From a virus (lineage: Duplodnaviria; Heunggongvirae; Uroviricota; Caudoviricetes), in IMG/VR virus record IMGVR_UViG_3300027608_000011: 64,000 nt of DNA; one strand, given 5' to 3'. Both the position numbers and the translations under genes were made by a program. The notes under the pieces were generated by a model. That model was not told the origin of the DNA. It saw nothing but the letters and a program-made list of their open reading frames with translations, and made no database searches. How positions within the stretch are numbered: the first letter of the stretch is position 1; each line of letters begins with the position of its first letter. This document shows, one piece after another, positions 11,298 through 53,115 of this stretch.

Positions 11298-11326
11298 TTG
11301 ACATATAGTATTATGTGTAGTATAAT
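11298..11326 (+). promoter_or_regulatory. sigma70-type promoter
   Basis: Perfect TTGACA-17 nt-TATAAT. Confidence 0.8.
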
Positions 11327-34760: not shown

Positions 34761-35500
34761 AAAAATACTTTACTATTCCTTATAAGGTTCTGTACCTACA
34801 AATATTAGCACATCTAGGATTAGCTTATCAGTTGTTCTACGGAGACGTATGGATGTGGATAGTGTCACTGGTAGTATTTGTTATATCAGGATGCTTTGGC
34901 TTGGTAATGACGTATCATAGATTACTAGCACACAATAGTTGGCCAGCTAGTTCCACATATAGAAAGGTAGGTAGCCTATTAGGATCGTATGCTGGAATAG
35001 GCAGTCCAATGGTATGGACTGCGGTACATAGAGCCCATCATAAATTTGTAGATACTGCTAAAGATCCACATAGCCCCGAACACCTAGGCTTTGCCCGAGT
35101 GCAATTTTTAGGAATGTTTGGTCAAGCAGGCGGCGAACATATTATAGATATGTTAAGGGATAAGTTTCAAACTAATTTAAATCGTTACTATTTTCACTTA
35201 CATATATTAGTAGGTATAGTTTGGTTGGTTATTAATCCTGCATTGTTTATATGTGCATATCTTGCTCCAATGGCATTACTGTGGGAAATAGGTGGTAGCG
35301 TAAACACTATTAATCATTTGTTTGGTTACAAGAACAAAGAAAACTCCAAGCATCATGCCTACAATAATCCCATAACAGGATATATGTTTTTTGGGGAAGG
35401 CTGGCATGCTAACCATCACGATGACCCGTTAAATTATACAACTAAACAAAAGTGGTGGGAATTTGATCTTGCAGGACTGATGATCAAATTGGTTAAATAG
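34757..35500 (+). CDS. Membrane fatty-acid (delta-9-like) desaturase
   Basis: Three His boxes (YHRLLAH, HRAHH, WHANHH), NTINH and TM segments. Confidence 0.9.
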   Translation: MKKYFTIPYKVLYLQILAHLGLAYQLFYGDVWMWIVSLVVFVISGCFGLVMTYHRLLAHNSWPASSTYRKVGSLLGSYAGIGSPMVWTAVHRAHHKFVDTAKDPHSPEHLGFARVQFLGMFGQAGGEHIIDMLRDKFQTNLNRYYFHLHILVGIVWLVINPALFICAYLAPMALLWEIGGSVNTINHLFGYKNKENSKHHAYNNPITGYMFFGEGWHANHHDDPLNYTTKQKWWEFDLAGLMIKLVK

Positions 35501-35503
35501 TAC

Positions 35504-36163
35504 ATGCGCCACGAAGACTTTCTATCAGAATACGACGAATCATCTAAGAATAGTAAGCAAATCATATCTAAATTAAAAGAATTAGGATATGATATGCTAG
35601 GGTCCGGCTACGATTCTACTGTATGGAGTAAAGATGCTGGCAGTGTTATTAAAATTATAATGCCCAGTGATGTAGTTCGTGCTGAGGGAGATTCTGCTTT
35701 TGTAAATTTCTACGAATTTTGTAAGGCAAACTCTAGTCCATTTTTACCAAAGTTTATTAGTATAGGCGGCGAGGATCATACAGTGTTTACGCTAAACGAT
35801 GTCCCGTACAGACAAATATCCATGGAAAAACTTAAACCCATACCAGTTAATACATTTAACGAACAAATGGTGTGGGCATTATCTGAATTGGCTGTTGTGC
35901 CATTTATTAAATGGCGTGATGCAAAAAAACAAATCACCCAAGCTGAATTTTGGAAACATTTCGAAGGGCCGGGTGATGAACAAGATGTAATAAGAAATTT
36001 AGCTAATCCTCAGACAGAGCATTTATGGTTATCGTTTCTAGATGTAATAAAAAAATTATATATCTTTGGTCGTGGACGCGGAATGGGCTGGGATTTACAT
36101 ACTGAAAATGTAATGATGAGAGGCGAGGTTCCTGTTATTGTTGACCCGTTCACAGGATCATAA
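35504..36163 (+). CDS. Protein-kinase-like enzyme with capsid-targeting-like N-terminus
   Basis: LGSGYDSTV, VIK, MEKL, DLHTEN and VDP; MRHEDFLSE start. Confidence 0.8.
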   Translation: MRHEDFLSEYDESSKNSKQIISKLKELGYDMLGSGYDSTVWSKDAGSVIKIIMPSDVVRAEGDSAFVNFYEFCKANSSPFLPKFISIGGEDHTVFTLNDVPYRQISMEKLKPIPVNTFNEQMVWALSELAVVPFIKWRDAKKQITQAEFWKHFEGPGDEQDVIRNLANPQTEHLWLSFLDVIKKLYIFGRGRGMGWDLHTENVMMRGEVPVIVDPFTGS

Positions 36164-36165
36164 TT

Positions 36166-39100
36166 ATGAAACTAAGAGAATTACTTGAAACAATTGTTAC
36201 TGAAAGTACACTAAGCGTTGATGTGCCAACTGAAGAATGGCTACAGGATAAAATTGATTACGCTAAGAAAAAAGGCCGCAACGAATACGGAGTTCCATAT
36301 ATGGGTAGCACCACTGCGTCAGTTCGTGGAACTCCGCCAAAGGTACGTGTAGTTAGATTGCACAGCCTTCGCGGTATGCGCCGTGAGCAAACCAATGTTC
36401 GCTACAATGATTTAAAGTGGTTAATGGACTACATGGATAAGAATAAGAAGTTACCGCCCATGGGTAGCAGTCCTGATAGTGAATACTTGCCTTACATTAT
36501 GGTTGCTTACAATGGTGAAGCATGGGTCAATGAAGGCAATCATCGTATTATGGCCGCATATAGATTAGGATGGGATACTATGCCCATTGAGATCAGATAC
36601 TTTGACGGCGGAGAGCGAGTAGAAGATGGTCCCATGTACCCGGGAAAAATAGGATTAGGTAATACACCAAAAGTTAAAGAGCAAGATGTTTCAGAAGCAC
36701 CGGCTGGATACAAAGAAATAGAATTTGTATGTGTTAATCCACAATTCCCAGATGCTACTGATCCTGCATTGCAGAAAAAGATGTATCGCGGACTAAAACA
36801 AATTGACGGAGTTGTTCCATTATGGCAAGAATGGGGTGATTACAGTGAAGGTCAGGCAAGTCTAAGTGCAATATATCAAGATTCTGACAGTCGTGATAAA
36901 ATATTATCACTGGCAAAACAACTGGGTGTTGAAGTGGATCTAGAGCAAGCAGTATCAGCTGACTATGTTGACCGTGCCAGGCGCGGAGAGCACGAAGGCC
37001 AGCAAGGCGTGGCGGAAGGCTTACAGAATAATGGAATTAGTTTTCGTGTACAAAAGGGTAAAAATAAATTTGTCACTACCATGACAGTTAATAACGAGCA
37101 GGTGGGTGTATACCAATATGATGCTACTACAGGTCGTAGCATAGCCGAGGTTTATCCAGAATTCAAGGGCAAAGGATTTGGTAAATTATTGGTTTTACAT
37201 GCTATCTATACCGCGGCCAAATTAGGATTAGATTTCCAAGAAGATGAATCAAGAACTGCTGAGTATGATAATGTGTTAGACAGTTTGAGTAGCAACAGTT
37301 ATATTGTAGATGATGATGGATATTGGTACGTTACTGGTGAGGGCGAACAATACCTACAACAATCATTAAAACAAGGTGTGGCGGAAGGCTCTGTACAGAT
37401 TAGTGAATATAGAGATAGATTGTTGCAATATGTCAAGAGTCTGTTACCTAACTACCCGGAGTATGTTCTTAAAGATTGGTTGGTACCCAACAAAGGTGAC
37501 TTTAGCAATTTGCCAGACACAGATCTCAAAAATGGCATAATGGAAAAATTAAAGTTGGCAGGACTTACACCTAACACCAAATGGCAACTTGTACCCGATA
37601 TGAAGTTTACAATGGATATGTTTGAGCCAAAGACTAAGCAACGATTGATTGGTCGTGCCGGCGGCTCAAGTGATTTAGGTATGGGTATACCTCGAGACAA
37701 AGAAAGACACGCAACTCAAGCGGCCTTAGCACAACAACAAGGTGGTGTGCGTAAAGAACCAGTGCTATTAATAAAAACAGACAAGGGCTACGAATTGTTA
37801 GAAGGGTGGCATAGAACTATACAACACTTTGCCAAGTATCCCAACGGTTATACAGGGCCTGCTTATGTGGCAGTTGCACAGCAAGGTGTGGCGGAAGCAC
37901 GTAGTAACCCAGAGCAGAATGTCAAGTACGAGTCCGGCATGAAAGAATTGGTGGCTGTTGCCAACTCTATTGCAGATACAGAAAACTGGGCCATTAGCAT
38001 GACCAGTGAGGCCAAGCTAGGCATCAACCCGCAAGTGGGCATCAGTGAAGACACACCCAAAGGCATTTACTTCTATCCACTGGACTATGCTGTAGACTTT
38101 GCCCGCCGCGGTAAAAAATTACCCTGGGGCCATGACTACCTTTATATTCAGTTGTTTCAATATGACCGTTCAGGTGAAATGACAAAAGAAACATCTGTAG
38201 ATTCTAATAAACTAAAACAAGCATTGCTTCAATATTGTCCTGAAGATGTAATTCAACAGGCCATAGACGAACCCGAATACGATGGTACACCATATTATTT
38301 CATTTACGATTGTTTAAGCAGACTGGGAAAAAGCGACGAAACTAATGTTGTTCGTTGGAACAAGGTCCTGCGTGATCTAGGCTTTACCAGTGTGTTTGAC
38401 GACGGGCATGGATGGATTGCCCACAATGAACCCACGCAAGGTGTAGTACTAGATCCAAGAGTTATCAAACAACTCAAGACTATTAGTAATAAAAAACAAT
38501 CAAAATTAATTACACCTGCTGTGATTGAACGGGCCATATTTGAGACTATGGACATGGAGTTAGCCGCTAGTAGATCATGGCAAGCATATGATCCAGACGG
38601 CAGTAAACTTAGAGCGGCGGCCAAGGAGTATGCCAAGAAACCTGAATTCAAACAGTGGTTTGGAAAACAAGCCACAGAAGAAATATTTGATAAGGCGGCA
38701 AGCTGGGGCAGATATGGTGCAAGACAATTGAGCCAAGAAGCGTGGGCTTGGTATAAAGAACAACAAGCTCAACAACCAGTTAAACAAGAAAGTTTAGAAG
38801 AGGCTCCATTGGCTGATTACGAGCCATTGGGAGACTTTACTAAGCCCGGACCGTTCACAGGTGCGGATAAAAAATTAATCCCACATCCGGCTAATCAACT
38901 TAAAGCTGAACAATTCTTTTCCAAGACGCCGTATGATATTAGATTATTCTTTAGTAACCTTACTGGTACAGGAAAATACAGTGAGTATGGTGTTATGGCC
39001 CCAGATGTGTTAAAGATAATATTTGGTGACGATGCTGATAAAATTATCAATGGACACGATGATGCAATCACAGTGGTATATGTTGGCAACAAAGGCGACA

Positions 39101-39627
39101 GCAAAAAAATGCTGACTCCTTGGGTTATGGCACATCGATTAGGACACGCTATACAAGCCGGAGTTAGATCAAAGGGATTGGGTCGCAAAGATCCTGATCA
39201 TCCATGGGCTCGTGGTGAAGATCATTTCTTTAAAGCAGTTAATTCTATGTTAGAAGAACACTATGGTAAACGTGGTACAGCCGGCGGTGACTTAAAATAT
39301 GAACTTACTCCAGAATATAACGCATTGTTTAATGCTATGGGAACACAACGAAGTAGTCGCAGTAACGAAATCCGCAGACCATATGAATTTTTATATGAAA
39401 TATTTGCACAATATCTAGGAACTGGAAAAGTTACATTTAACCCGTTACCAGCTAATTTAGCATACGGACGCAAAGCGTGGGGAAATCCCACTAAGTATAT
39501 GAACATTAAGCCGGAATATAAAGAAGAAACTGACAGGCATCAAATTGCAGATCAGTTGGCATACGACATGGAACTAATGTTTAATGACGTAATGAGTCAG
39601 ATGGTTGGTAAAATTTTAGTAATGTAA
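36166..39627 (+). CDS. 1153-aa polyvalent head-internal polyprotein (ParB-like, unknown, GNAT, ParB-like, unknown, zincin-like)
   Basis: EGNHR, VYPEFKGKGFGKLL, EGWHR, TPKGIYFYPL and HRLGH modules; the first five are separated by QGVAE/QDVSE repeats, the last by SLEE. Confidence 0.75.
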   Translation: MKLRELLETIVTESTLSVDVPTEEWLQDKIDYAKKKGRNEYGVPYMGSTTASVRGTPPKVRVVRLHSLRGMRREQTNVRYNDLKWLMDYMDKNKKLPPMGSSPDSEYLPYIMVAYNGEAWVNEGNHRIMAAYRLGWDTMPIEIRYFDGGERVEDGPMYPGKIGLGNTPKVKEQDVSEAPAGYKEIEFVCVNPQFPDATDPALQKKMYRGLKQIDGVVPLWQEWGDYSEGQASLSAIYQDSDSRDKILSLAKQLGVEVDLEQAVSADYVDRARRGEHEGQQGVAEGLQNNGISFRVQKGKNKFVTTMTVNNEQVGVYQYDATTGRSIAEVYPEFKGKGFGKLLVLHAIYTAAKLGLDFQEDESRTAEYDNVLDSLSSNSYIVDDDGYWYVTGEGEQYLQQSLKQGVAEGSVQISEYRDRLLQYVKSLLPNYPEYVLKDWLVPNKGDFSNLPDTDLKNGIMEKLKLAGLTPNTKWQLVPDMKFTMDMFEPKTKQRLIGRAGGSSDLGMGIPRDKERHATQAALAQQQGGVRKEPVLLIKTDKGYELLEGWHRTIQHFAKYPNGYTGPAYVAVAQQGVAEARSNPEQNVKYESGMKELVAVANSIADTENWAISMTSEAKLGINPQVGISEDTPKGIYFYPLDYAVDFARRGKKLPWGHDYLYIQLFQYDRSGEMTKETSVDSNKLKQALLQYCPEDVIQQAIDEPEYDGTPYYFIYDCLSRLGKSDETNVVRWNKVLRDLGFTSVFDDGHGWIAHNEPTQGVVLDPRVIKQLKTISNKKQSKLITPAVIERAIFETMDMELAASRSWQAYDPDGSKLRAAAKEYAKKPEFKQWFGKQATEEIFDKAASWGRYGARQLSQEAWAWYKEQQAQQPVKQESLEEAPLADYEPLGDFTKPGPFTGADKKLIPHPANQLKAEQFFSKTPYDIRLFFSNLTGTGKYSEYGVMAPDVLKIIFGDDADKIINGHDDAITVVYVGNKGDSKKMLTPWVMAHRLGHAIQAGVRSKGLGRKDPDHPWARGEDHFFKAVNSMLEEHYGKRGTAGGDLKYELTPEYNALFNAMGTQRSSRSNEIRRPYEFLYEIFAQYLGTGKVTFNPLPANLAYGRKAWGNPTKYMNIKPEYKEETDRHQIADQLAYDMELMFNDVMSQMVGKILVM

Positions 39628-39637
39628 AGGATAATAT

Positions 39638-40024
39638 ATGAGAGCACACGAATTATTTGAAGATGGGTACCATGAAGAAAAGCAACCCAGATGGGGACAA
39701 GATCGTGCCAAGATTGATATCATTGGTTTGGGCCATTTGATCCTGGCAGGAACAGTACCAGTAGGAAAAAATGCAGTTAGTAGTATCAAATCTTTGTCCA
39801 GTGTAGGCATAACCTTTGCAGATTTACATACTAGATTAGAAGAATTTTACAAAGAAAAAGAAGACAGCGAAGCCGATTGTATACCAATCATTAAAAAATG
39901 GTTACTGACACATAAGCCACATATTGCACAAGAGCTACACAGTGAACATTGGGAAACAACCCCAAAAAGTTCATCAATGATGAGCAGTAAACAAACGCAA
40001 CATCCTCCCACGGCTACTAGTTGA
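39638..40024 (+). CDS. Small putative head-internal protein
   Basis: MRAHELFED start; AGGA ribosome-binding site. Confidence 0.55.
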   Translation: MRAHELFEDGYHEEKQPRWGQDRAKIDIIGLGHLILAGTVPVGKNAVSSIKSLSSVGITFADLHTRLEEFYKEKEDSEADCIPIIKKWLLTHKPHIAQELHSEHWETTPKSSSMMSSKQTQHPPTATS

Positions 40025-40054
40025 CAATCACGATTAACTATTGTATAATAAATA
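40021..40054 (+). promoter_or_regulatory. Perfect sigma70 promoter overlapping a TAAATA box, driving the radical SAM array
   Basis: TTGACA(40021)-17 nt-TATAAT(40044); TAAATA at 40049. Confidence 0.8.
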
Positions 40055-40065
40055 CGTAGTTAATT

Positions 40066-41712
40066 ATGCGCCCATACATACACACCAATCCCCTAACCAC
40101 CACTGAAGTTACCAAAATACAGGAGTCTAGCACTGAATGGCTTAATGCCCAAAGTCCTAGCATGTGTTTAGCCAAGTGGTATCACGTTAGTTTACATTTA
40201 ACTAACGGACGTACCCATAGCTGTTATCACCCTCCTACACATAAAATTAACATAGAAGATATCAAATACAAAGCCAGTGCATTACATAACACTGACCAAA
40301 AAATTATAGAGCGTAAACAAATGCTCCGCGGAGAGAAGCCAGAAGGATGTAAGTACTGCTGGAGTTTAGAAGATCAAGGTAACCTTAGCGACCGTCACTA
40401 TCGTAGCAGTGAACATTGGGCATTGCCGTACAGAGATAGTGCGTCTGTTAATTTAGAACCCAATCCAACTTACGTAGAAGTAAACTTTAATCAAAGTTGC
40501 AATTTTAAATGTAGCTATTGCAGTCCGCATCTAAGTACAGCCTGGGAAGAAGAAATTAAAGAATTTGGTCCGTATCCCACCAGTGCTCCACACAATGCTA
40601 TCCAAGCATTGGATACATTAGAACTAATGCCACTCAAAGTAGCAAACAAAGACAATGCTTATGTAGAAGCGTTCTGGAGATGGTGGCCAGAATTATATAA
40701 CACATTGCTAGTATTTCGTATGACTGGTGGTGAGCCGCTAATGGATAAGAATACGTTTAAGGTGCTGGACTATGTTGCTAATAATCCCAAAGGCGATTTA
40801 GAGATTAGCATTACCAGCAACATGGTGCCGCCTGATCCTAAGTTAATGGATAAGTTTATTAATACTATACAAGACATAGAAAAATATACTGCCAGTGCAA
40901 CAGTAGTTGCTATAAACAATGGAAAGAAAAGTCACGATAAATGGCCAAGGCATGTGTTAAACAAATCTAGTGTTAACGCAGATACCTTACACAGATTACA
41001 GATTAATGGGTTACCAAATACTAACAGTATTCCCGACGATGGCAGTTTCGGTTACGAGTTAACAACTACCAAAGCATGTCGACATGTTGGTGTATATGTT
41101 AGTTGCGACAGTGTAGGAGAACAAGCGGAATATATACGCTATGGTCTCGAGTACGCCACATTGATTAATAATGTAAAGCGTGTGTTATACGATACGCATA
41201 TGACTACTATTACTTTTATTAATACTTTTAATATTTTAAGTATTCCTAAATTACAACAGTATTTAGAAATGATTCTAGAAATGCGTAGGTATGTTAATAC
41301 CCTTAAGGATATTCCTGAAAAGAATCCAACATATAATAATTTCTGGAGTCGACAGCGTGTATGGTTTGATTTGCCAACGTTACGTACCCCAGTATGGTTA
41401 ACTGTGCAAACATTACCCAGCAATATGTATGTGTTATTAGATAATGCATTAAAATATATGTCAGCCAATTCTACAGATGTACACGGAGATTTAATAGGAT
41501 TTGCAGATTTTGAAATAGATAAACTCAAACGAAATATCGATTGGATGAAATCCAGTTTGCTATCGGAATCGCAAAAACAATTATTACGTAGTGATTTCTA
41601 TGCATTTTTTAAAGAGTATGATTATAGAAAGAATACTAATTTTGTGAAGACATTCCCAGAGCTACAGCTTTATTGGAAGCAATGCGAGAACAATTATAAT
41701 GCAAGAACCTAA
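40066..41712 (+). CDS. Radical SAM enzyme with N-terminal twitch/SPASM-like Cys cluster (#1)
   Basis: CNFKCSYC, TGGEP; N-terminal C..KW...SCYHP...CKYCW. Confidence 0.9.
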   Translation: MRPYIHTNPLTTTEVTKIQESSTEWLNAQSPSMCLAKWYHVSLHLTNGRTHSCYHPPTHKINIEDIKYKASALHNTDQKIIERKQMLRGEKPEGCKYCWSLEDQGNLSDRHYRSSEHWALPYRDSASVNLEPNPTYVEVNFNQSCNFKCSYCSPHLSTAWEEEIKEFGPYPTSAPHNAIQALDTLELMPLKVANKDNAYVEAFWRWWPELYNTLLVFRMTGGEPLMDKNTFKVLDYVANNPKGDLEISITSNMVPPDPKLMDKFINTIQDIEKYTASATVVAINNGKKSHDKWPRHVLNKSSVNADTLHRLQINGLPNTNSIPDDGSFGYELTTTKACRHVGVYVSCDSVGEQAEYIRYGLEYATLINNVKRVLYDTHMTTITFINTFNILSIPKLQQYLEMILEMRRYVNTLKDIPEKNPTYNNFWSRQRVWFDLPTLRTPVWLTVQTLPSNMYVLLDNALKYMSANSTDVHGDLIGFADFEIDKLKRNIDWMKSSLLSESQKQLLRSDFYAFFKEYDYRKNTNFVKTFPELQLYWKQCENNYNART

Positions 41713-43105
41713 AACATATTATTCTAAATTATTAGAGACTAAAGAAAAACTCAATGCAGTTGGTAAGGGTTTTTGCCTAATGAAGTGGCAAACGGAAACG
41801 TTATATCTACACATGGGAGATAATCATAGCTGTTACCATCCGCGTCCACATAAAATATTGTTAAGTGATATTAAACGGAACCCCAGTGGATTACATAATA
41901 CTGCATTTAAAAAAGAACAACGTAAAGTTATGCTCGAAGGCGGGAGACCCAATGAATGTCAGTATTGTTGGAATGTAGAGGATCTAGAAGGGGATCATGT
42001 AAGTGATAGAATGGTGCATAGTACCAGTGATTATGCAATTAAAGACTATGATGCTATTCGTAATTTAGATGCGGATGCAGATTGGAATCCTAGACATATT
42101 GAAATTAGCTTTGGTAATGCTTGCCAACTTAAATGTGGATATTGTTGTCCCCAGGCCAGTAGTGCATGGATGGAAGAAATCAAACGTAAGGGAGATTACG
42201 ATATTACCACCAAACAATATAGCATTGACTTTTTAAAGTCAGGCGTATTTTACGAGCCAGACATGGAAAATCCCTATGTGGATGCATTTTGGGAGTGGTG
42301 GCCAACTTTAAAAAATGACTTAGAAGTATTTCGCATTACTGGCGGAGAGCCGTTACTTAACAGCAATACATTTAAATTGTTAGATATGTTAGATGATGAT
42401 CCTAGTCCACATCTGCAAATACATATTAACAGTAACTTAGGAATGAAGTCTAGCTTAGTAGAAAAGCTAAGTGCTAAAGTAAATAAGTTACTAACAGAAG
42501 GCAAGATTAAAGATTTTAGATTATTCACTAGTATTGACGGATGGGGAGAACGTGCAGAATATATGCGTAACGGTTTAGATTGTGCGTTATGGGAAAAGAA
42601 TGTTCGTATATTTTTAGATACTGTACCCAACAGTAAAATTAATTTAATGATTACATTTAATGTTCTCAGCGTTGTGCAATTTAGGCTTCTGTTAGATAAG
42701 ATTTCTAGTCTGCGTAAAGAGTATGGCACGTTGGAGAATATGCATACACAACGTATTGGCTTTGATACTCCGTACTTAAAAGAGCCGCCACACTGGATGA
42801 TTAATATATTGCCCAGGCAATATATGGATTTCATGCACGATCATTTACGTCATATGACTATTAATGAACGAACTGTTAACAACCAACACGGCTTTGATAA
42901 AGTAGAAATTGAAAAATTTAAACGTGTAGTTGATTACATGGGAGCCAGTAATGTTGATCCCGAAGTTATTAAACAAGGCCGTAGAGATTTTTACACGTTC
43001 TTTACAGAACATGACAAGAGAAGAAATGTTAGTTTACTAGATACATTTCCAGAATACACAGATTTTTATAATTTCTGTGAACAAGTATATAGGAATTACA
43101 AATGA
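41699..43105 (+). CDS. Radical SAM/twitch enzyme (#2)
   Basis: CQLKCGYC, TGGEP; SCYHP, CQYCW. Confidence 0.9.
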   Translation: MQEPKTYYSKLLETKEKLNAVGKGFCLMKWQTETLYLHMGDNHSCYHPRPHKILLSDIKRNPSGLHNTAFKKEQRKVMLEGGRPNECQYCWNVEDLEGDHVSDRMVHSTSDYAIKDYDAIRNLDADADWNPRHIEISFGNACQLKCGYCCPQASSAWMEEIKRKGDYDITTKQYSIDFLKSGVFYEPDMENPYVDAFWEWWPTLKNDLEVFRITGGEPLLNSNTFKLLDMLDDDPSPHLQIHINSNLGMKSSLVEKLSAKVNKLLTEGKIKDFRLFTSIDGWGERAEYMRNGLDCALWEKNVRIFLDTVPNSKINLMITFNVLSVVQFRLLLDKISSLRKEYGTLENMHTQRIGFDTPYLKEPPHWMINILPRQYMDFMHDHLRHMTINERTVNNQHGFDKVEIEKFKRVVDYMGASNVDPEVIKQGRRDFYTFFTEHDKRRNVSLLDTFPEYTDFYNFCEQVYRNYK

Positions 43106-44400
43106 GATTAATGAATTATGATGTACCGGCGTTGTATGGCCCGGGAGAAATTTCAGGCATGCACTTAGAATTAACAGACAAATGTAATGCTGGTTGTCCT
43201 ATGTGCCCGCGTTATATCAACAACGGCGCAGAAGTCAACCCTAATGTATTAGAAACAGAAATTACCCTAGAGCAATTTAAAACTTGGTTCCCTCCTAGTT
43301 TTGTTAAACAACTCAAACGTGTGTATGCTTGCGGCAATTACGGTGACCCAATTGTTGCCAAGGATAGTTTAAAGATCTTCCAGTACATGAGAGAACACAA
43401 TGACACTATGGCTCTTACATTGCACACCAATGCCAGTGCCCGTAGCTTGTCGTGGTGGACAGAGTTAGGTAAAGTAGTTAATAACTTTGAACGCGGTGAC
43501 TTTTGTGTATTCAGTGTGGACGGATTAGCAGACACTAACCCATTGTATAGACGTAATACAAACTTTGAAAAAATCTATGCAAATATGAAAGCGTTCAAAG
43601 CCGCGGGCGGTGTTGCAAAATGGGATTACATTGTATTCAAACATAATGAACATCAAGTGGAAGAAGCTAGGCAAATTGCCAAAGACTTGGGTTTTGAATT
43701 CTTTAATGTCAAACGTACCACACGTTGGCATAAATGGGACGAGCGCGGCCGCGGCTTTTTTGAAGTATATGATAAAACAAAAGAAATTACACACAAACTA
43801 GAACAGCCAGAGAATGAAAATTTTAGAGATAGTAATTTTAAAGAATTGAAGGGCGTTGGTATTGTGCCTATGTATATAACTAATCAAGAATTTGATAAGA
43901 TGAATCAGATTAGTTTAGAGCACAGAGAATGGGACAATCAGAAAAACGAATGGGTTTCATTTCAGCATAATAAAATTGAAGTAAGTTGCAGAGCACAACA
44001 TCACGAAAAGGGCGGCAACAACATGGTGAATGAAATATTTGTCAGTGCCAGCGGGCATGTATTTCCTTGTTGTTTTATTGGTGGTGAACCTTGGCGTCAT
44101 ATCAATGATGATCGTCCATGGGAAGTGGCTAAACAAGGTCCTGCATTTAAAGGTTCCAGTGATGATGCAAGTATGCAAATGATTGAACTAGCTGGCGGAC
44201 TAGATACATTAAGTCTGCACAAAAATACATTGACAGAAGTATTGCAAGGCCAGTTCTTTGATCGATATCTGCCGCGTAGTTTATACAAAGGACACAATAT
44301 GCGTAGCAGACAATGCAGTACATGTTGCGGTAAAGAATGGAATAAATTAGACAATGGTGAGTTAGGCACCCACCACAACAAAACTCATACTGATGAATGA
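43102..44400 (+). CDS. Radical SAM enzyme with C-terminal SPASM/twitch domain (#3)
   Basis: CNAGCPMC; C-terminal SC...GHVFPCC...CSTCC. Confidence 0.9.
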   Translation: MRLMNYDVPALYGPGEISGMHLELTDKCNAGCPMCPRYINNGAEVNPNVLETEITLEQFKTWFPPSFVKQLKRVYACGNYGDPIVAKDSLKIFQYMREHNDTMALTLHTNASARSLSWWTELGKVVNNFERGDFCVFSVDGLADTNPLYRRNTNFEKIYANMKAFKAAGGVAKWDYIVFKHNEHQVEEARQIAKDLGFEFFNVKRTTRWHKWDERGRGFFEVYDKTKEITHKLEQPENENFRDSNFKELKGVGIVPMYITNQEFDKMNQISLEHREWDNQKNEWVSFQHNKIEVSCRAQHHEKGGNNMVNEIFVSASGHVFPCCFIGGEPWRHINDDRPWEVAKQGPAFKGSSDDASMQMIELAGGLDTLSLHKNTLTEVLQGQFFDRYLPRSLYKGHNMRSRQCSTCCGKEWNKLDNGELGTHHNKTHTDE

Positions 44401-45742
44401 CATTAAAACACTAATTGAAGTACGTGATAAGTTAAACGAAGTTGGTAAGGGATTTTGTTTACTCAAATGGACACAACAAACGCTGTACTTGCAGACAGGT
44501 GATAACCATAGTTGTTATCATCCCTACCCACACAAAATTGCATTGACTGACATTCAGCGTAGTCCAGCCGGTATACATAATACTGCTCACAAAAAGGAAC
44601 GCAGAAAGCAAATGTTGTCCAATGAACGTCCAGACGAATGTTATTTTTGTTGGCAAGTAGAAGACAACGGACACATCAGTGATAGAATTATTAATAGTGC
44701 AAACGACATAACACAGTTTGACGTTATTAAAAACTTATCTAGTGAAGCTGATTACAATCCAAGTTTTATTGAAGTCAACTTTGGCAACGTTTGTAATTTT
44801 ATGTGCGGATACTGTACCCCTACTGTTAGTAACAGTTGGATCAACGATATTGCAAAGAACGGAGAGTTCCCAGTAAAAACAAATCAATACAAAATTGATT
44901 TTATCCGAGATCGAGAATATTACGAAAGTGACGATGAGAACAATCCTTACGTTAAAGCCTTTTGGGAGTGGTGGCCTGACCTTGTCAAGGATCTAAAAAC
45001 TCTAAGGATTACCGGCGGCGAACCCATGCTTAATCAAAACACATGGCAACTGTTGGATAAGTTAGAAGCAGAGCCGGCTCCACATTTAACTTTGTTGATC
45101 AACAGTAACTTAGGTGTTAAGCCTGGCCTAATTGAACGACTTAGTCAGCGTGTTCGAACACTGTTACAAAAGAAATGTATTAAAGATTATCGTATGCACG
45201 TTAGTATAGACACATGGGGTAAGCCGGCAGAATATATACGCTATGGACTGGACTGTGATATATTTGAAAAGAATCTAATAACTATAATGGATAATTTTAA
45301 AGATATCAATGCCAGTATAGAAATTATGGTCACATACAACAATTTAGTGTTACCTAGCTTTAGACAATTGTTAATTAAAATTCAAGAGTGGAGAAAATTA
45401 TACGGCGACCGCTTAGAATTTATTACTCCGCATCTTAAAGAGCCAGTCCACTGGAGTATTAATATCTTACCGAAAAGTTTTGTTAAATACATAGATAACG
45501 ATATTGAGTTTATGCAACAGCAGGGATTTAACCCAATTGAAATAGAAAGATTAGATAGGGTTCGTAGTCATATGATAAATTATACGTACCCCGTAGATGT
45601 AGAATACAACGCCAAATCAGATTTTTATAACTTCTTTACCGAACATGATCGCCGACGCGGTACTAATTTTATAGAAGTATTTCCGGAATACAAAGACTTT
45701 TTCAATGACTGCAAAAAATACACTCTGCATACTCCCATTTAA
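44393..45742 (+). CDS. Radical SAM/twitch enzyme (#4)
   Basis: CNFMCGYC, TGGEP; SCYHP, CYFCW. Confidence 0.9.
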   Translation: MNDIKTLIEVRDKLNEVGKGFCLLKWTQQTLYLQTGDNHSCYHPYPHKIALTDIQRSPAGIHNTAHKKERRKQMLSNERPDECYFCWQVEDNGHISDRIINSANDITQFDVIKNLSSEADYNPSFIEVNFGNVCNFMCGYCTPTVSNSWINDIAKNGEFPVKTNQYKIDFIRDREYYESDDENNPYVKAFWEWWPDLVKDLKTLRITGGEPMLNQNTWQLLDKLEAEPAPHLTLLINSNLGVKPGLIERLSQRVRTLLQKKCIKDYRMHVSIDTWGKPAEYIRYGLDCDIFEKNLITIMDNFKDINASIEIMVTYNNLVLPSFRQLLIKIQEWRKLYGDRLEFITPHLKEPVHWSINILPKSFVKYIDNDIEFMQQQGFNPIEIERLDRVRSHMINYTYPVDVEYNAKSDFYNFFTEHDRRRGTNFIEVFPEYKDFFNDCKKYTLHTPI

Positions 45743-46925
45743 TACTCTAAGCATAGGACAAAGTGGACATCAGCGTTTATGCTGTAATGCACTTAACGGA
45801 GGACTTAGTGGTGAGGGCTGGCCTGGCCCGGTAACACAACGACCTACATTGCAATGGCAACAGGGTCAGACTATACAAAAGATACGAGATGTAATGGTTG
45901 CTGGATATAAGCCATCCCAGTGTGAACGTTGCTGGGAATTAGAAAAGATGGGATCTGAAAGTTATCGACAAATTAATAACACATACAGATTTCCTGAAAG
46001 CTATGCTAAATTAGAAGCAGGCGACCAAACTGTTAAACTAGAAAGATTAGAATTAGACTTTGGTAACAAATGTAATCTTGCTTGCCGTATGTGTCACCCA
46101 TATAGTAGTAGTTTGCTGGCGCAAGAAGTTGCAAAAGATCCTGTAAATGCATATACAACTATTGATATTAAATTCCTAGAAGAAAACAGTTGGGTTAAAC
46201 GTAGTAGATTGTTTGATGTTGTCCGTGAACAAGGACATGATTTAAAGAGCGTGTATATAATTGGTGGTGAGCCATTGATTATGGATGAGCAAGAAGAATT
46301 CTTAGATTTACTTATAGAATTAGATTTTGCTAAAAATATTTCATTGGAGTATAATAGCAACATTACAACTATTGGAAAAAAATGGTACGACAAGTGGAGC
46401 AACTTTAGAGAAGTTAATTTAAATGCTAGTATTGACGGAGTAGGATCAATATATGAATATGTACGTTGGCCTGCGAAGTGGGATAAAATTTATAACAATT
46501 TAAAAGAGCTACAGGATTGGCATAAACAAGACACAACTAAAAACAAAGTATGTGTTCACTCCACGCTTAGTAATTTAACTGTCCCGGGCATTGCCGAAAC
46601 AGCTGACATACTAATAGGAGAAATGAATTTTAATATATTTTTTATTAATGTAGATCATCCCACTTGTATGCGACCTGAAGTACTACCGGCAAAGGTTAAG
46701 CAGACCCTTGCCCGTACGGGAATAGAACATATTCAAAAGAACTTTAAGGATCATTATTCATTGTCAAATGTTGTCAGAACATTAGAGCGTGTAGTTGCCA
46801 GTAGTGAGCCCAGTGAACAAGACAAAATAGATTTTATAAAAAGAATGAATTACATGGACAAGCATCGTAAGCAAAATCTATTAGATTTACATCCGTGGTT
46901 TGAGGAATGGTATGTACATCAATAA
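45705..46925 (+). CDS. Radical SAM/twitch enzyme (#5)
   Basis: CNLACRMC, IGGEP; LC.LPF...LCC, CERCW. Confidence 0.9.
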   Translation: MTAKNTLCILPFNTLSIGQSGHQRLCCNALNGGLSGEGWPGPVTQRPTLQWQQGQTIQKIRDVMVAGYKPSQCERCWELEKMGSESYRQINNTYRFPESYAKLEAGDQTVKLERLELDFGNKCNLACRMCHPYSSSLLAQEVAKDPVNAYTTIDIKFLEENSWVKRSRLFDVVREQGHDLKSVYIIGGEPLIMDEQEEFLDLLIELDFAKNISLEYNSNITTIGKKWYDKWSNFREVNLNASIDGVGSIYEYVRWPAKWDKIYNNLKELQDWHKQDTTKNKVCVHSTLSNLTVPGIAETADILIGEMNFNIFFINVDHPTCMRPEVLPAKVKQTLARTGIEHIQKNFKDHYSLSNVVRTLERVVASSEPSEQDKIDFIKRMNYMDKHRKQNLLDLHPWFEEWYVHQ

Positions 46926-48102
46926 ACAAACATTCTGCATACATCCAAATGCGGCCATCAGTACCACACCCGACGGACATTATAAAACATGTTGTATGAG
47001 CGAAGAAGTCATACGTAAACCAGACAGTACTCCTTACAAACCCAGTATTGATAATATGCAAGAAGCGTTTGATAGTCCATGGATGAATAACTTACGCAGA
47101 GATTTAAATATTGGATTTAAACATCCTAATTGTAAAAGATGCTGGGATGAGGAACGTGCTGGCCAAAATAGTAAGCGTATGCGAGATAGTAGGGAATACT
47201 TGGATGGCGTAAAAACTATTAACAAAGGCGAACACATAATTAAGATAGTGGATTTGAAAATGGGTAACTTGTGTAACCTAAAATGTAGAATTTGTAATCC
47301 ATGGAATAGCAGTCAATGGATAGATGAATGGTATAAACTAAAGCCTCCTCAAGAATCTAAGATTGAATTTCACAAAACATTCAAAGCAATGCGTGATGCA
47401 TGGAAATCAGATCAAAACATTTGGACCAACTTGAAACAGGCATTACCGCATATTGAACATATGGACCTGTACGGCGGAGAGCCGTTAATGATTGAAAACA
47501 TGTGGGACATTCTAACACATAGTGTAGAAAATGGTTACAGTAAAAATCAAACAATACACTACAACACCAATGGCAGTATAATGCCCAGTGACGAGCAAAT
47601 AGAATTATGGAAACAATTTAAATTAGTTGATGTGCAAGTGAGTGTAGATGATATTAATGACAGGCATCATTATCAACGTTATCCCAGTGAATGGGATAAA
47701 GTGCGAGACAATGTGCTAAAATTTAAAAATCACAGTTGGATCAGATTAAGTACCAATGCCACTATAAGTAACTATAATATTTTTTACTTGGATGAGATCA
47801 CTGACGAGATTGTAAAGAACATTGGTACCAGTGTTTGGTATAATATATTACATGCACCATATGATCAAAGCGTGGCGGCGCTGGATCCTGAAATTAAAGA
47901 AATATTAGTTAAAAAATTAGAACACCTTAACTCGTATCAACATGAGATTATGCCCATATTGAATTTCGTAGCCAGTAAGCCAGACCCAGAAAAAATTAGA
48001 ATGTTTTTAACTCGTAATGAAGAACAAGATGAATATCGTAAACAGAGCTTTGCAACCACTTTCCCAGAGTGGAACGCAATCCTTAGATCCCACTACAAAT
48101 AA
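46912..48102 (+). CDS. Radical SAM/twitch enzyme (#6)
   Basis: CNLKCRIC, YGGEP; FC.HP...TCC, CKRCW. The start at 46912 has a GAGG ribosome-binding site. Confidence 0.9.
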   Translation: MYINKQTFCIHPNAAISTTPDGHYKTCCMSEEVIRKPDSTPYKPSIDNMQEAFDSPWMNNLRRDLNIGFKHPNCKRCWDEERAGQNSKRMRDSREYLDGVKTINKGEHIIKIVDLKMGNLCNLKCRICNPWNSSQWIDEWYKLKPPQESKIEFHKTFKAMRDAWKSDQNIWTNLKQALPHIEHMDLYGGEPLMIENMWDILTHSVENGYSKNQTIHYNTNGSIMPSDEQIELWKQFKLVDVQVSVDDINDRHHYQRYPSEWDKVRDNVLKFKNHSWIRLSTNATISNYNIFYLDEITDEIVKNIGTSVWYNILHAPYDQSVAALDPEIKEILVKKLEHLNSYQHEIMPILNFVASKPDPEKIRMFLTRNEEQDEYRKQSFATTFPEWNAILRSHYK

Positions 48103-49213
48103 AAGTATCTGTACGTTCCCATGGGTACACTTGCACGCCTGGCCGGACGGTAAAGCGTTTCCATGTTGCATGAGTGATCCATTAAAACCTATAGGCGATT
48201 TGAAAAAGAATAAAATAATCGAAATTGTCAACGGTGACAAGTATACTGAGATTAAAAATAAAATGTTAGCAGGTGAGAAAGTTGATACTTGTTATAAATG
48301 TTATCAGCAAGAAGACATGGGTATGGAGAGTATGAGGTTAAGTAGCTTTAAATATCACCCTACTGATTTTAAAGAATTTAAACTTAAATATTTAGATATT
48401 AGATTTAGCAATGTATGTAATCTAGCCTGTGTTACATGCGGTCCTACATTTAGTAGTAAATGGCATAACGATTGGATTACATTAGGACGCACTAGCGGCC
48501 ACGAAAGACTATTAGAGTTAGACATTATGAATGAATTAACAGCCGAACACTTATGTGACGTAGAAAACGTAACCTTTGCAGGTGGTGAGCCATTGGTAAC
48601 GGACCAACATTTTCAAATACTAGAATATTGGATCGAAGAACAACAGGACGTTAACATTTCTTATATTACAAATTTAACAAACTTAAATTATAAGAACAAA
48701 AACATACTAGAATTATGGAATAAATTTAAACGTGTCAGTATGTTAGTTAGCGTGGATAATGTATGGGACAAATTCAATTACATACGTTGGGGCGCCGATT
48801 GGCAACAACTACTAATTAATTTAGAAAAAGTTCATACACAATGTCCTCATATTGATATTAAGATTACTCCTACTATTAGTATTTTAAATATATTAGATTT
48901 AGACAAAATTGAACGTGCTATACATAGTCAGACTGGAATCCACAATTATCAGTATAATTTCTTATCTTATCCCGAATACTTAAAGGCAGAGTTATTACCA
49001 GAAAAGTACAGAGATGAAGCAAGACGTATGGTATCCTATCATAAAACATGGTTAAGCGATAACAACTTAACTTCGACAATGCCTGCATTAGTAGAAAGCA
49101 TACTCGAAAATCACGATAATATTGAAAAACTAGAAGAGACTCGAAAATACCTCGGTGATCTAGATGTTATTAGAAAGACTAATAGTAAAGAGTTGTTTCC
49201 GTATATTTGGTAA
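48017..49213 (+). CDS. Radical SAM/twitch enzyme (#7)
   Basis: CNLACVTC, AGGEP; IC.FPW...PCC, CYKCY. Start uncertain (overlaps #6). Confidence 0.88.
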   Translation: MKNKMNIVNRALQPLSQSGTQSLDPTTNKSICTFPWVHLHAWPDGKAFPCCMSDPLKPIGDLKKNKIIEIVNGDKYTEIKNKMLAGEKVDTCYKCYQQEDMGMESMRLSSFKYHPTDFKEFKLKYLDIRFSNVCNLACVTCGPTFSSKWHNDWITLGRTSGHERLLELDIMNELTAEHLCDVENVTFAGGEPLVTDQHFQILEYWIEEQQDVNISYITNLTNLNYKNKNILELWNKFKRVSMLVSVDNVWDKFNYIRWGADWQQLLINLEKVHTQCPHIDIKITPTISILNILDLDKIERAIHSQTGIHNYQYNFLSYPEYLKAELLPEKYRDEARRMVSYHKTWLSDNNLTSTMPALVESILENHDNIEKLEETRKYLGDLDVIRKTNSKELFPYIW

Positions 49214-49241
49214 ATATATACATACTTACAGGAGCACCCAT

Positions 49242-49781
49242 ATGTCTAGAACTATTGGAGAAAACGGATTAGAATTAATTAAACATTTCGAAGGATGTTA
49301 TAGTTCAGTCCCAGGATCGGCCGCATTAGGAAAAATAAAGCCAAAGCCCGTTACAAATTTAAAAAACGAAGAACAATCAGTATATAGCTATCGTTGCTCC
49401 GCCAATGTAGCAACTATTGGTTGGGGTAATACAAGATGGGCAGACGACGAGCCTGTAACAGACGGTGATGAATGTACTCTTGCTGACGCAAATAGCTTAT
49501 TTTCAGTCGAAGTAGCAGAGTTTGCACATAACGTTGACAGACTTATTACCAATCCGCATGTTACACAAAACATGTTCGATTCGTTAGTTAGTTTTGCCTA
49601 TAACGCAGGTGTTGGCAATCTCAAAGCTAGTACTTTGTTAAAAACAGTTAATGCTGGTGATTTTCACGGAGTGCGCGAGCAGTTCATGCGTTGGAACAAA
49701 GCAGGCGGTAAAGAACTTGCTGGTTTAACCAAAAGGCGTGTTGCCGAAGCAACATTGTTCGAAACACCGGATGACGAATAA
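49242..49781 (+). CDS. Phage lysozyme (GH24 endolysin)
   Basis: LIKHFEG, TIGWG, FDSLVSFAYNAG, WNKAGG and GLTKRR.AE; TAAATA and GGAG upstream of ATG 49242. Confidence 0.92.
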   Translation: MSRTIGENGLELIKHFEGCYSSVPGSAALGKIKPKPVTNLKNEEQSVYSYRCSANVATIGWGNTRWADDEPVTDGDECTLADANSLFSVEVAEFAHNVDRLITNPHVTQNMFDSLVSFAYNAGVGNLKASTLLKTVNAGDFHGVREQFMRWNKAGGKELAGLTKRRVAEATLFETPDDE

Positions 49782-50180: not shown

Positions 50181-50479
50181 TCAATAAACTTAAATCTTGG
50201 TTCGCTCCTACTCTGGAGTGGATTAAAGAAGACTATCAAGCCTGGCCGTTTCGATTTTATATTGAAGTTATAGCCTGGACAATTAGTATTGGCAATAGCA
50301 TTGTAATGATGTTGACAGTACCTACTCCGCCGCTTATAATACTGTATCCTATATGGATCTGCGGTTGTGCGTTGTATGCTTGGGCGGCCTGGACAAGAGG
50401 CAGTTTCGGTATGCTAGCCAACTACATGTTGTTGGTAACTATAGATTCCATTGGGCTAATTAGGATGATTATTAAATGA
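50177..50479 (+). CDS. Small multi-TM membrane protein
   Basis: About three hydrophobic segments. Confidence 0.6.
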   Translation: MINKLKSWFAPTLEWIKEDYQAWPFRFYIEVIAWTISIGNSIVMMLTVPTPPLIILYPIWICGCALYAWAAWTRGSFGMLANYMLLVTIDSIGLIRMIIK

Positions 50480-53115
50480 GTTATGTAGACGCTTTCTACA
50501 ATAAAGAAAAAGATTTGGTGCATGTAGTAGAACGTGTTGACGGCCAAAGGAAGTTTAGAGACATTCCAGTTAAGTATACCTTTTATTATCCTGATAATAA
50601 AGGAAAATACAAAAGCATACATGGATATCCATTATCCAAAGTATCTGTTAACAACCATAAGTCGTTTGACAAAGAAAAACGAATCATGGGCGGAAAGAAA
50701 CTTCATGAGAGTGATATTAAACCTGTGTTCAGAGTGCTAGAGGAAGAATATCCAGATGCGGATACTCCTAATCTTAATAAAGTTTTCTTTGACATTGAGG
50801 TAGCATTTAATAAAGAAAAAGGATTTGCTGATCCCAGTGATCCGTTTAATCCTATTACCAGTATTACATTACACCTAAGTTGGTTAGATAAACTTATTAC
50901 TATCTGCAATAAGCCCGATAGTTTGACTACTGAACAAGCACAGGAAATTTGCAGTAGGTTTGATAATACTGTGCTGTGCGAAACAGAAGAAGAAATGTTG
51001 GACATGTTCCTAAGTCTAGTCGACGACGCTGATATTATCAGTGGATGGAACAGCGAAGGCTTTGATATTCCGTACACACTAAATCGTATTGGTCGAATCA
51101 TGGGGCAGGATCATAATAGACGACTTTGCCTATGGGGACAAAAACCCAAAACAAGAGAGTTTGAAAAGTATGGAAAAACATCAATTACATTTGACTTGAT
51201 AGGTCGTGTACACTTAGATTATCTTGAACTATACCGCAAGTATACATATCATGAATTACATACGTATCGTCTAGACTTTGTCGGAGAGTACGAACTAGGT
51301 GAAACAAAAGTCCAATATGAAGGTACACTAGATCAGCTATACAACAACGATTTCGAAAAGTTTATTGCTTATAATAGGCAAGATACAATGTTGTTAGTTA
51401 AGTTAGATAAGAAGTTACAATATATTGACTTAGTAAATGTATTAGCACATGCCAATGGTGTATTGTTTCCAACGACTATGGGCGCAGTTGCAGTTACTGA
51501 TCAAGCCATTATCAAAGAAGCACACAATAGAGGACTAGTAGTTCCTGACAGGATACGAGATCATGCAGAGACACAGGCCGCTGGTGCGTATGTAGCATAT
51601 CCTAAAAAAGGCATTCACGAATGGATAGGTAGTATGGACTTGAACAGTTTGTACCCTAGTATTATTCGTGCGTTAAACATGAGTCCGGAAACTATTGCTG
51701 GCCAAGTTCGTTTAGATATGACTAAGAAGATGCTAACTGATGGCATGGACTCTGGTAAAAGTTTTGCAGACTGCTGGGACGGAAGATTCGCTGTCATGGA
51801 ATATGAAGCAGTTATGAATCAGGATATCGGCACTGACGTTATTATCGACTGGGAAAATGGTCATAGTGAACAAGTAAGCGGTAAAGAAGCGTACGAGAAG
51901 ATATTCTTGACGGGACAAAATTTGATTATGAGTGCCAATGGTACTATCTTTACGTATGCCAATAAAGGAGTTATTCCTGGATTGCTTGAACGTTGGTATA
52001 CTGAACGTAAAGAATTACAAAAGAAATTAAAAGAAGCAAAGACTCCTGAAGAGATTGAATTTTGGGACAAACGACAACTAGTTAAGAAGATTAACTTGAA
52101 CTCCGCATATGGTGCGTTGCTTAATGCAGGCAGTAGGTTCTTTGACCAACGTTTAGGACAATCAACTACATTAACTGGTCGTTGTATTGCCAAGCATATG
52201 GCCGCGCAGGTTAATGCTATGTTTACTGGGGAATATGATCATATAGGTAAGTCAATTATATATGGTGATACTGACTCTGTATACTTTAGTGCCTGGCCTA
52301 TATTTAAAGAAGAAGTTGAATCCGGCAAACTAGATTGGAGTAGAGAAAAGGTAATCGAACTTTATGATGCAGTCAGTGAAGAAGTCAACGGCACTTTCCC
52401 AGCGTTTATGAATCAAGCATTTAATGTTCCTAGTTTGTATGCTCAACCTATTAGGGCAGGTCGTGAAGTAGTCGCTAGTAAAGGTATTTACATGACCAAG
52501 AAGCGTTATGCTGTTCTTATCTATGACAAAGAAGGCAAGCGCAAAGACGTTGGGTCACCCGGAGAAGTTAAAGCTATGGGCCTGGACCTTAAACGAGCAG
52601 ACACTCCTGAATTCATGCAAAAGTTTTTAGAGGAAGTATTGCTAATGCTACTAACCGGGGAAGATCAACAAAAGATATTGGATCGGATATTAGCATTTAG
52701 AAAAGAATTTAAAGTTAGGCCGGCATGGGAAAAAGGTACACCTAAACGTGTAAACAATTTAACCAAACACACTGACGTCTTTAAGAAGACCGGTAAATGT
52801 GGTATTGGTCATGCATTGGCGGCAATCAATTGGAATAGAGTTAAGAAGATGCATAACGATAGCTATTCCATGGATGCTACAGACGGAATGAAAGTTATCG
52901 TTTGTAAACTCCGCTCTAATCCATTGGGTATGACTAGTATTGCATATCCAACAGATGAACATCGATTACCATTGTGGTTTAAAGAATTACCATTTGATAA
53001 CGATGCAATGGAAGAAGCAATTATTGATAATAAAATTGATAACTTGCTGGGGGTGTTGGGTTGGGACTTGCAGTCTACAAAAATGAAGAATACATTTAAC
53101 CTATTATTTGAATAA
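50476..53115 (+). CDS. polB: Family B DNA polymerase (T4 gp43-like)
   Basis: Exo FDIE, WNSEGFD; polymerase DLNSLYPS, KINLNSAYG, YGDTDS, KKRY. Confidence 0.97.
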   Translation: MSYVDAFYNKEKDLVHVVERVDGQRKFRDIPVKYTFYYPDNKGKYKSIHGYPLSKVSVNNHKSFDKEKRIMGGKKLHESDIKPVFRVLEEEYPDADTPNLNKVFFDIEVAFNKEKGFADPSDPFNPITSITLHLSWLDKLITICNKPDSLTTEQAQEICSRFDNTVLCETEEEMLDMFLSLVDDADIISGWNSEGFDIPYTLNRIGRIMGQDHNRRLCLWGQKPKTREFEKYGKTSITFDLIGRVHLDYLELYRKYTYHELHTYRLDFVGEYELGETKVQYEGTLDQLYNNDFEKFIAYNRQDTMLLVKLDKKLQYIDLVNVLAHANGVLFPTTMGAVAVTDQAIIKEAHNRGLVVPDRIRDHAETQAAGAYVAYPKKGIHEWIGSMDLNSLYPSIIRALNMSPETIAGQVRLDMTKKMLTDGMDSGKSFADCWDGRFAVMEYEAVMNQDIGTDVIIDWENGHSEQVSGKEAYEKIFLTGQNLIMSANGTIFTYANKGVIPGLLERWYTERKELQKKLKEAKTPEEIEFWDKRQLVKKINLNSAYGALLNAGSRFFDQRLGQSTTLTGRCIAKHMAAQVNAMFTGEYDHIGKSIIYGDTDSVYFSAWPIFKEEVESGKLDWSREKVIELYDAVSEEVNGTFPAFMNQAFNVPSLYAQPIRAGREVVASKGIYMTKKRYAVLIYDKEGKRKDVGSPGEVKAMGLDLKRADTPEFMQKFLEEVLLMLLTGEDQQKILDRILAFRKEFKVRPAWEKGTPKRVNNLTKHTDVFKKTGKCGIGHALAAINWNRVKKMHNDSYSMDATDGMKVIVCKLRSNPLGMTSIAYPTDEHRLPLWFKELPFDNDAMEEAIIDNKIDNLLGVLGWDLQSTKMKNTFNLLFE

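Follow-up and report, generated by a model that had tools for sequence, protein, structure and literature searches.

A tandem array of seven distinct, conserved radical SAM genes in an uncultured phage, with a carbohydrate as its possible substrate

The stretch of DNA analysed here (the window) comprises 64,000 nucleotides of the IMG/VR virus record IMGVR_UViG_3300027608_000011, and the element under study is an array of seven consecutive genes, R1 to R7, which fill the region 40066-49213 of the plus strand with overlapping open reading frames (ORFs). Judged from their sequences, the seven encode distinct, working radical S-adenosylmethionine (SAM) enzymes, six of the catalogued family NF033640 and one, R3, of another family. 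The array is a further instance of the widespread arrays of large aquatic phages, distinct in its layout and unusual in being separated from the companion genes found elsewhere. Its product or substrate may tentatively be taken as a carbohydrate formed during infection, either a nucleotide-sugar or a glycan; this interpretation, the preferred one overall, is given somewhat less than an even chance.

An earlier note on this DNA had described seven tandem overlapping ORFs, each with a CxxxCxxC motif, and this description was confirmed: adjacent R genes overlap by 4-86 nt, and exactly one CxxxCxxC is present per protein (7/7). A host-type (sigma70-like) promoter serves the seven genes as a single operon. 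Promoter and genes are as follows (aa, amino acids):

40021-40049, plus strand: sigma70-type promoter TTGACA-17 nt-TATAAT before R1, 12/12 match
40066-41712, plus strand: R1, N_Twi_rSAM type A, 548 aa, carrying an insertion of approximately 100 aa; NF033640 score 295 bits
41699-43105, plus strand: R2, N_Twi_rSAM type A, 468 aa; NF033640 score 305 bits
43102-44400, plus strand: R3, other radical SAM family, with a putative C-terminal Cys-rich (SPASM/twitch-like) domain, 432 aa; phrog_21308
44393-45742, plus strand: R4, N_Twi_rSAM type A, 449 aa; NF033640 score 298 bits
45705-46925, plus strand: R5, N_Twi_rSAM type B, 406 aa; NF033640 score 300 bits
46900-48102, plus strand: R6, N_Twi_rSAM type B, 400 aa, TTG start; NF033640 score 315 bits
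48017-49213, plus strand: R7, N_Twi_rSAM type B, 398 aa; NF033640 score 333 bits

The NCBIfam model NF033640, named N_Twi_rSAM ("twitch domain-containing radical SAM protein"), has a curated cut-off of 170 bits and was matched by R1, R2, R4, R5, R6 and R7 over their full length (295-333 bits). R3 reached 47.8 bits with a core match only, under the cut-off, and was not assigned to this family. The Pfam model Radical_SAM (PF04055) matched all seven proteins with E-values from 1e-4 to 4e-11; its gathering threshold of 29.5 bits was reached by R1 (29.5), R5 (39.4), R6 (43.8) and R7 (39.2), while R2 (26.7), R3 (24.3) and R4 (22.4) scored below it (E 7e-6 to 1.5e-4). The full-length NF033640 matches, taken together with the fold models described below, can be considered to settle the membership of R1-R7 in the radical SAM superfamily. 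Three more specific identities were tried on the seven proteins and rejected: QueE (TIGR03963, 17-24 bits versus a cut-off of 260), viperin (NF038283, 15-35 bits versus 180) and MoaA (TIGR02666, 18-31 bits versus 284).

In each of the six NF033640 proteins, a group of N-terminal cysteines spaced as C-x17-18-C-x41-45-C-x2-C precedes CxxxCxxC. In R1, for instance, these are cysteines 34/53/95/98, followed by C145-C149-C152, and in R5 they are 8/26/27/73/76, followed by C123-C127-C130. The same six proteins have in common a GGEP motif and the C-terminal motif D-x-x-[RK]-x-x-[NS]-x4-[FH]P, where the variable basic residue is K in R1 and R in the others. In a family alignment of 35 sequences, C50, C92 and C95 were invariant, and the auxiliary cysteines as a whole, GGE and the D/R of the tail were invariant or nearly so. 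Residues 32-96 of R7 matched Pfam SPASM with an E-value of 1.7e-9. The cysteines and the SPASM match point to an auxiliary-cluster (twitch) domain located N-terminal to the barrel in R1, R2 and R4-R7. The two corresponding claims of the earlier note, an auxiliary-cluster domain placed before the barrel and a shared C-terminal D-x-x-R motif, thus hold for these six paralogues, save for the lysine of R1. It is worth noting that the reversed domain order is not new, being the defining feature of the catalogued family NF033640.

R3 has neither the N-terminal cysteine cluster nor the C-terminal D-x-x-[RK] motif. Its conserved cysteines are C-terminal (C323, C324, C405 and C409 invariant, C296 nearly so), and it belongs to an unnamed family of 1595 proteins, many of which carry a C-terminal match to PF13186 (Pfam SPASM). 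The C-terminal SPASM/twitch domain attributed to R3 is therefore only partly supported, by these cysteines and by the homologues, but not by R3 itself, which gave no PF13186 match at E<0.01.

Concerning the divergence of the array proteins, the overall identity between paralogues was 22-50%. Type A proteins (R1, R2 and R4) were 28-50% identical among themselves, the upper value corresponding to R2 and R4, type B proteins (R5, R6 and R7) were 23-27% identical, and comparisons of type A with type B gave approximately 22-25%. In a tree of 144 rows, viral and bacterial, R2 and R4 were sisters with a support of 99, which indicates that R4 is a lineage-specific duplicate of R2. The R1 clade also contained 11 viral and 3 bacterial rows, R5 stood on a long branch, and R5, R6 and R7 each fell in a small clade of their own, the viral and bacterial rows being interleaved in the tree.

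The same seven genes, in the same order, were found in the IMG/VR contigs L004 and L005, with amino-acid identities of 71-87% (81% for R1 and 82% for R6 in L004), and a partial copy of the array was found in L003. The comparison with L004 gave non-synonymous divergences (dN) of 0.10-0.20 at saturated synonymous sites (synonymous difference, pS, 0.74-0.83), and therefore every one of the seven copies is under purifying selection. Moreover, 66 of the 69 cysteines were kept in the L004 orthologues, and CxxxCxxC was retained. The purifying selection on each copy and the ancient divergence fit the earlier proposal that the paralogues serve distinct steps or substrates rather than being redundant.

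Perfect TTGACA-N17-TATAAT sites occur six times in the window, at positions 11298, 19875, 40021, 50312, 58065 and 63731, all on the plus strand, versus 0.11 expected; another one of the six precedes the DNA polymerase gene. They look like a set of host-polymerase (early/middle) promoters. The site before R1, claimed earlier as a perfect sigma70 promoter, was corroborated by its 12/12 match and by its conservation in L004, where TTGACA-17-TAGAAT occupies the same place with an identical -35 element. The array would be transcribed early or middle by the host polymerase. The late box said to overlap this promoter did not stand. The sequence in question, TATAATAAATA, is likewise conserved in L004, but it does not fit the T4 late consensus TATAAATA, which in the window is rarer than chance (2 found versus 11 expected); since the consensus is unmatched and under-represented, there is no evidence for a late promoter.

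In IMG/VR, at least 589 stretches carry the NF033640 family. Every one of the 82 loci sampled holds 3-8 N_Twi copies within approximately 21 kb. The arrays of other phages are tandem, translationally coupled and anciently diverged, with type A first and type B after, and many of the sampled loci display a canonical clade order 0-2-1-4-3 (five genes). When the sample was seeded with R3, 70/80 loci had an N_Twi gene within 8 kb and 49/80 had at least three. Among the loci closest to R3 there is a second layout, and one of these arrays, L168, is collinear with that of the window, with identities of 44% (R1), 53% (R2), 53% (R3), 34% (R5), 35% (R6) and 31% (R7). L167 and L169-L175 are variants of the R1-R2-R3-R5-R6-R7 order; throughout L167-L175, R2 orthologues are 52-54% identical to R2 of the window and R4 is absent. 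By this comparison, the window array is best described as the six-gene set R1-R2-R3-R5-R6-R7, recurrent in divergent uncultured phages, to which R4 was added by duplication of R2. It shares with the canonical five-gene arrays the tandem order of type A followed by type B, but differs from them in the embedded R3-family enzyme, the extra R2 duplicate and the lack of a clade-2 member. In 2017, as many as 12 radical SAM genes were reported from the genome of a T4-like marine virus (PMC5332604).

Among species-representative bacterial genomes, 440 relatives of the family were found, mostly in Bdellovibrionota, Flavobacteriales and other Bacteroidota. Bacterial contigs longer than 300 kb carry 1-3 copies, and arrays of at least four copies (n=16) occurred on contigs of 2.5-262 kb. 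In six of these 16 arrays c0 and c1 are present, companions otherwise seen in viruses and described below; these six are probably phage contigs binned into metagenome-assembled genomes (MAGs); the arrays of Bdellovibrionota are without c0 and c1. Real bacterial chromosomes have 1-3 NF033640 copies, in contrast to the phage of the window with six and R3. In a groundwater bacterium, fused forms of the family occur: two MAG contigs of Elusimicrobia (L075 and L081) contain tandem proteins of 670-1030 aa, for each of which the N_Twi profile gives 300-410 bits.

The structural models of R7 and R3 had predicted local distance difference test (pLDDT) scores of 88.6 and 85.3, respectively. R7 matched, in order of Z score, BlsE (12.8), SkfB (12.1), anSME (12.0), CteB (11.6), MoaA (11.5) and viperin (11.3), while R3 matched BlsE first, followed by SuiB, SkfB, MoaA, viperin, anSME and DesII. 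BlsE, a cytosylglucuronate decarboxylase (PDB 7vob), was thus the best match of R3 (Foldseek E 1.5e-10) and aligned with R7 with a root-mean-square deviation of 3.4 over 216 residues, although its sequence identity to R3 and R7 is only 14-19%; a PDB sequence search with R7 and R3 gave no match. These matches place R3 and R7 in the SPASM/twitch subgroup, but do not distinguish between sugar, peptide and nucleotide substrates.

With respect to the chemistry, the CxxxCxxC/GGEP core would cleave SAM, and the N-terminal twitch of each of R1, R2 and R4-R7 would hold a second [4Fe-4S] cluster on four cysteines, R3 acting as a SPASM/twitch-type enzyme of a separate family. Twitch domains bind a single auxiliary cluster. 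That of BtrN is a [4Fe-4S] cluster with four Cys ligands, and it is proposed to receive, in a two-electron oxidation, the electron of the substrate radical; that of MoaA is held by three cysteines, and the substrate binds to its open iron (PMC9012708). As R1, R2 and R4-R7 have four or five N-terminal cysteines, a BtrN-like role is favoured, in which the fully ligated auxiliary cluster would take the electron from the substrate radical, and therefore the steps would be oxidative: dehydrogenation, cross-linking or rearrangement. BtrN, a 2-deoxy-scyllo-inosamine dehydrogenase, resembles the N_Twi proteins in its single four-Cys auxiliary cluster, and its substrate is small and sugar-like. On the other hand, the twitch of BtrN is C-terminal and that of N_Twi is N-terminal, there is no detectable sequence relation between them beyond the superfamily, and BtrN is not among the fold matches listed. 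Each paralogue might then abstract hydrogen at a different position of one shared scaffold, or from a different intermediate of it.

The argument for a carbohydrate comes from the genes that recur with the arrays. The most constant neighbour is c0 (about 310 aa), found in 62/82 N_Twi-seeded loci and 67/80 R3-seeded loci, followed by c1 (about 270 aa; 57/82 loci), a DUF6071-like protein with a weak DUF6071 match (56/82), a tail-fibre-like protein with a PHROG tail-fibre match, encoded upstream of the arrays (40/82), a carbamoyltransferase with a clear Pfam match (38/82) and a nucleoside diphosphate (NDP)-sugar epimerase with a clear PHROG match (25/82). Neither c0 nor c1 has a Pfam or PHROG match. 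The c0 family comprises at least 8000 proteins, unnamed, environmental and almost purely viral (e.g. L127:6268-7164 and L166:17006-18010), some of them tandem fusions of about 535 aa. The nearest c0 clusters are labelled "glycosyltransferase 2-like" in the atlas, and 8/24 members gave weak glycosyltransferase family 2 (GT2) matches around an IDGDN (DxD) motif. As for c1, all of its 17 weak PDB matches were to glycogenin (GT8), and it has an LDxDYL motif. So, c0 and c1 look weakly like glycosyltransferases of the GT-A fold. In the bacterial loci, the neighbours include genes of PhyH dioxygenases, carbamoyltransferase and a Wzt-type O-antigen ATP-binding cassette (ABC) transporter. This companion context argues with moderate strength for a carbohydrate substrate. 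In the same direction, the first fold match of both R3 and R7, BlsE, is a nucleoside-sugar enzyme, and BtrN provides a precedent for the chemistry on a sugar-like molecule.

The window array, unlike arrays elsewhere, lies physically apart from c0, c1, carbamoyltransferase and epimerase. In a relative phage, whose contig of 184 kb is about 52% complete, an eighth copy, an N_Twi gene of type A, was found approximately 44 kb downstream of the array, accompanied by three c0 genes, c1 and c54:

L166 12046-19783 (G001:C1:112046-119783), minus strand: eighth-copy operon of the relative phage

This operon shares its gene order with RsoM2USA_347 to _352 in Ralstonia jumbo phage RsoM2USA, a cultured phage in which RsoM2USA_349 is a type-A N_Twi gene and RsoM2USA_350 a c0 gene; in the source phage, the corresponding region falls beyond the window. 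Genes for iron-sulphur (Fe-S) assembly and carbamoyltransferase were not found in this 184-kb contig, about 52% complete.

Both the chemistry and the sugar substrate are parts of the carbohydrate interpretation that we infer, and several observations weigh against it. The sugar, peptide and nucleotide enzymes are tied within approximately 1.5 Z units in the fold matches. The E-values behind the glycosyltransferase assignment of c0 and c1 are 0.01-0.3, and hhalign of c0 against real GT2 was negative, as were hhalign of c0 against c1 and a PDB profile search with c0; the homologue search with c0 returned only "hypothetical protein". BLAST and hidden Markov model (HMM) searches of the 64-kb window gave no homologue of any of the 25 commonest companion families, and the array stands there among virion-cargo, lysozyme and DNA polymerase genes. 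In cultured bacteria, the neighbours of single-copy members are heterogeneous and show no sugar theme. A literature search found no paper naming NF033640 or an N-terminal twitch, and one on jumbo phages yielded nothing of relevance. It should be added that carbohydrate tailoring is compatible with a virion protein, a DNA base or the host envelope as the final acceptor.

The first rival explanation, unlikely as it seems, takes proteins or peptides as the targets of the enzymes (for example tail fibres, virion cargo or a protein of the host), with cross-links, epimerisation or oxidation as in the SPASM/twitch maturases of proteins and of RiPPs (peptides synthesized by the ribosome and modified after translation). 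The RiPP maturases SkfB, CteB and SuiB, and also anSME, belong by fold to the same radical SAM subgroup as the array and are among its top fold matches, and fusions to TPR or Sel1 repeats occur in some of the bacterial homologues; however, no RRE or PqqD-like recognition domain appeared in the Pfam and NCBIfam scans of the array proteins, no leader-peptide gene was found, and the auxiliary domain is at the opposite end of the protein. The position of the window array after capsid-cargo-like genes could suggest a virion substrate, but the 1153-aa polyprotein present there is an insertion absent from L004. Similarly, an ORF of 128 aa directly upstream of the array is 61% conserved in L004, but was seen only in this close relative. 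A tail-fibre-like gene does lie upstream of 40/82 arrays, but no small precursor-like gene recurs with them, the recurrent neighbours being enzyme-sized.

Rather more doubtful is an action on nucleotides or on the phage DNA, either to decorate the 7-deazaguanine made by the DpdA/FolE cluster situated 5-12 kb downstream (FolE/QueD/DpdA genes at 54-62 kb of the window) or to produce viperin-like modified nucleotides. Viperin is indeed among the fold matches, but the viperin, QueE and MoaA models gave 15-35 bits versus cut-offs of 180-284. The promoter of the operon is of the same class as that of the DNA polymerase gene, and FolE, a GT1-like gene, a cytidylyltransferase and dehydrogenases are encoded at 56-62 kb; against this, the relative phage has a true QueE of its own (177 bits), and arrays elsewhere adjoin tail-fibre-like and sugar genes, not replication genes.

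A more novel reading would have the N-twitch arrays and their glycosyltransferase-like companions build a heavily radical-tailored sugar or glycan existing only during infection, as a new hypermodification on the phage DNA (here perhaps on 7-deazaguanine) or on the virion. We consider this quite improbable as a whole; if true, at least six distinct radical SAM steps would be needed, and we know of no phage pathway that requires so many.

A still smaller probability is given to the tailoring of a lipid or another small molecule, in connection with the upstream fatty-acid desaturase and an acyl-tailoring cluster further along the genome. The desaturase gene is at 34757-35500 in the window and just upstream of the array in L004, but a desaturase adjoins the family in only 2/241 sampled loci. 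There are matches to the lipid enzyme Tes/GDGT-MAS, but with E about 5e-4 they are far below the cut-off; the enrichment of the N_Twi family in Bdellovibrionota would also fit a lipid substrate. Finally, it is very hard to believe that the array consists of a single enzyme in redundant or decaying duplicates, because although R2 and R4 are a fairly recent pair (50% identity), all seven keep the Fe-S and SAM motifs under purifying selection and the gene order is kept across phages with only 31-54% identity.

As for the phage itself, the DNA polymerase (50476-53115) shows identities of 50% with the enzyme of Sinorhizobium phage Phosso and of 45% with that of Agrobacterium phage Atu_ph07, and the source is therefore assigned, by this similarity, to the uncultured jumbo phages of the T4 superfamily. 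A near-identity DNA search of GenBank phages gave no match. At the protein level, the only GenBank phage matches were Vibrio phages K566/K567 and Ralstonia phage RsoM2USA for R7, and RsoM2USA alone for R2 and c0; the matched RsoM2USA genes are all annotated as "hypothetical".

The array is flanked in the window by cargo-type genes upstream and by a lysozyme gene and then the DNA polymerase gene downstream. The region 35504-39627, which codes for a kinase-like protein and for the 1153-aa polyprotein, is an insertion relative to the otherwise syntenic L004, unlinked to the radical SAM array. In L004, the array is immediately preceded by a 208-aa gene, the desaturase and a gene of 122 aa, in this order, the 208-aa gene being 1.2 kb upstream of it. 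In the window its counterpart is:

34134-34760, plus strand: 208-aa protein, candidate array companion, with no Pfam or PHROG match

Homologues of this protein (29-38% identity) are encoded directly behind R3-type arrays in L169, L170, L171, L173 and L174, which makes it a probable companion of this array type. Its invariant residues H124-x-D126, H190 and R199 (HxD...H...R) are those of what may be a small Fe(II)/2-oxoglutarate (2OG)-type oxygenase; hhalign against PhyH neighbours and a PDB profile search were both negative for a 2OG/Fe(II) oxygenase.

On the other side of the array, the lysozyme-family ORF was called at 49164-49781; its L004 orthologue has 178 aa and starts past the R7 stop. 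This ORF probably starts in truth at its internal Met, residue 27, and the 50-nt overlap with R7 would then disappear. In the relative phage, a clear QueE gene at G001:C1:86427-87293 (phrog_2076, 177 bits), placed by synteny about 0.4 kb past the window end, completes the FolE/QueD/DpdA deazaguanine set. Further along the same relative, the segment L166 4615-9385 (G001:C1:104615-109385) encodes a dioxygenase of the TauD family, another desaturase-like paralogue (the second) and a 527-aa radical SAM enzyme with a B12-binding domain, which are probably part of a tailoring cluster beyond the window.

Radical SAM enzymes are costly and oxygen-sensitive. That seven of them are kept here, and three to thirteen in hundreds of phages, points to an important gain to the phage, and NF033640 and c0 are among the more abundant unexplained gene sets of aquatic phages. 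The window adds to this picture a second conserved array layout, together with evidence that an array can work away from its usual companions, and it points to a cultured phage, Ralstonia phage RsoM2USA, that carries the c0/N_Twi sub-module. Finding the array product would open new phage biochemistry and probably new radical chemistry.

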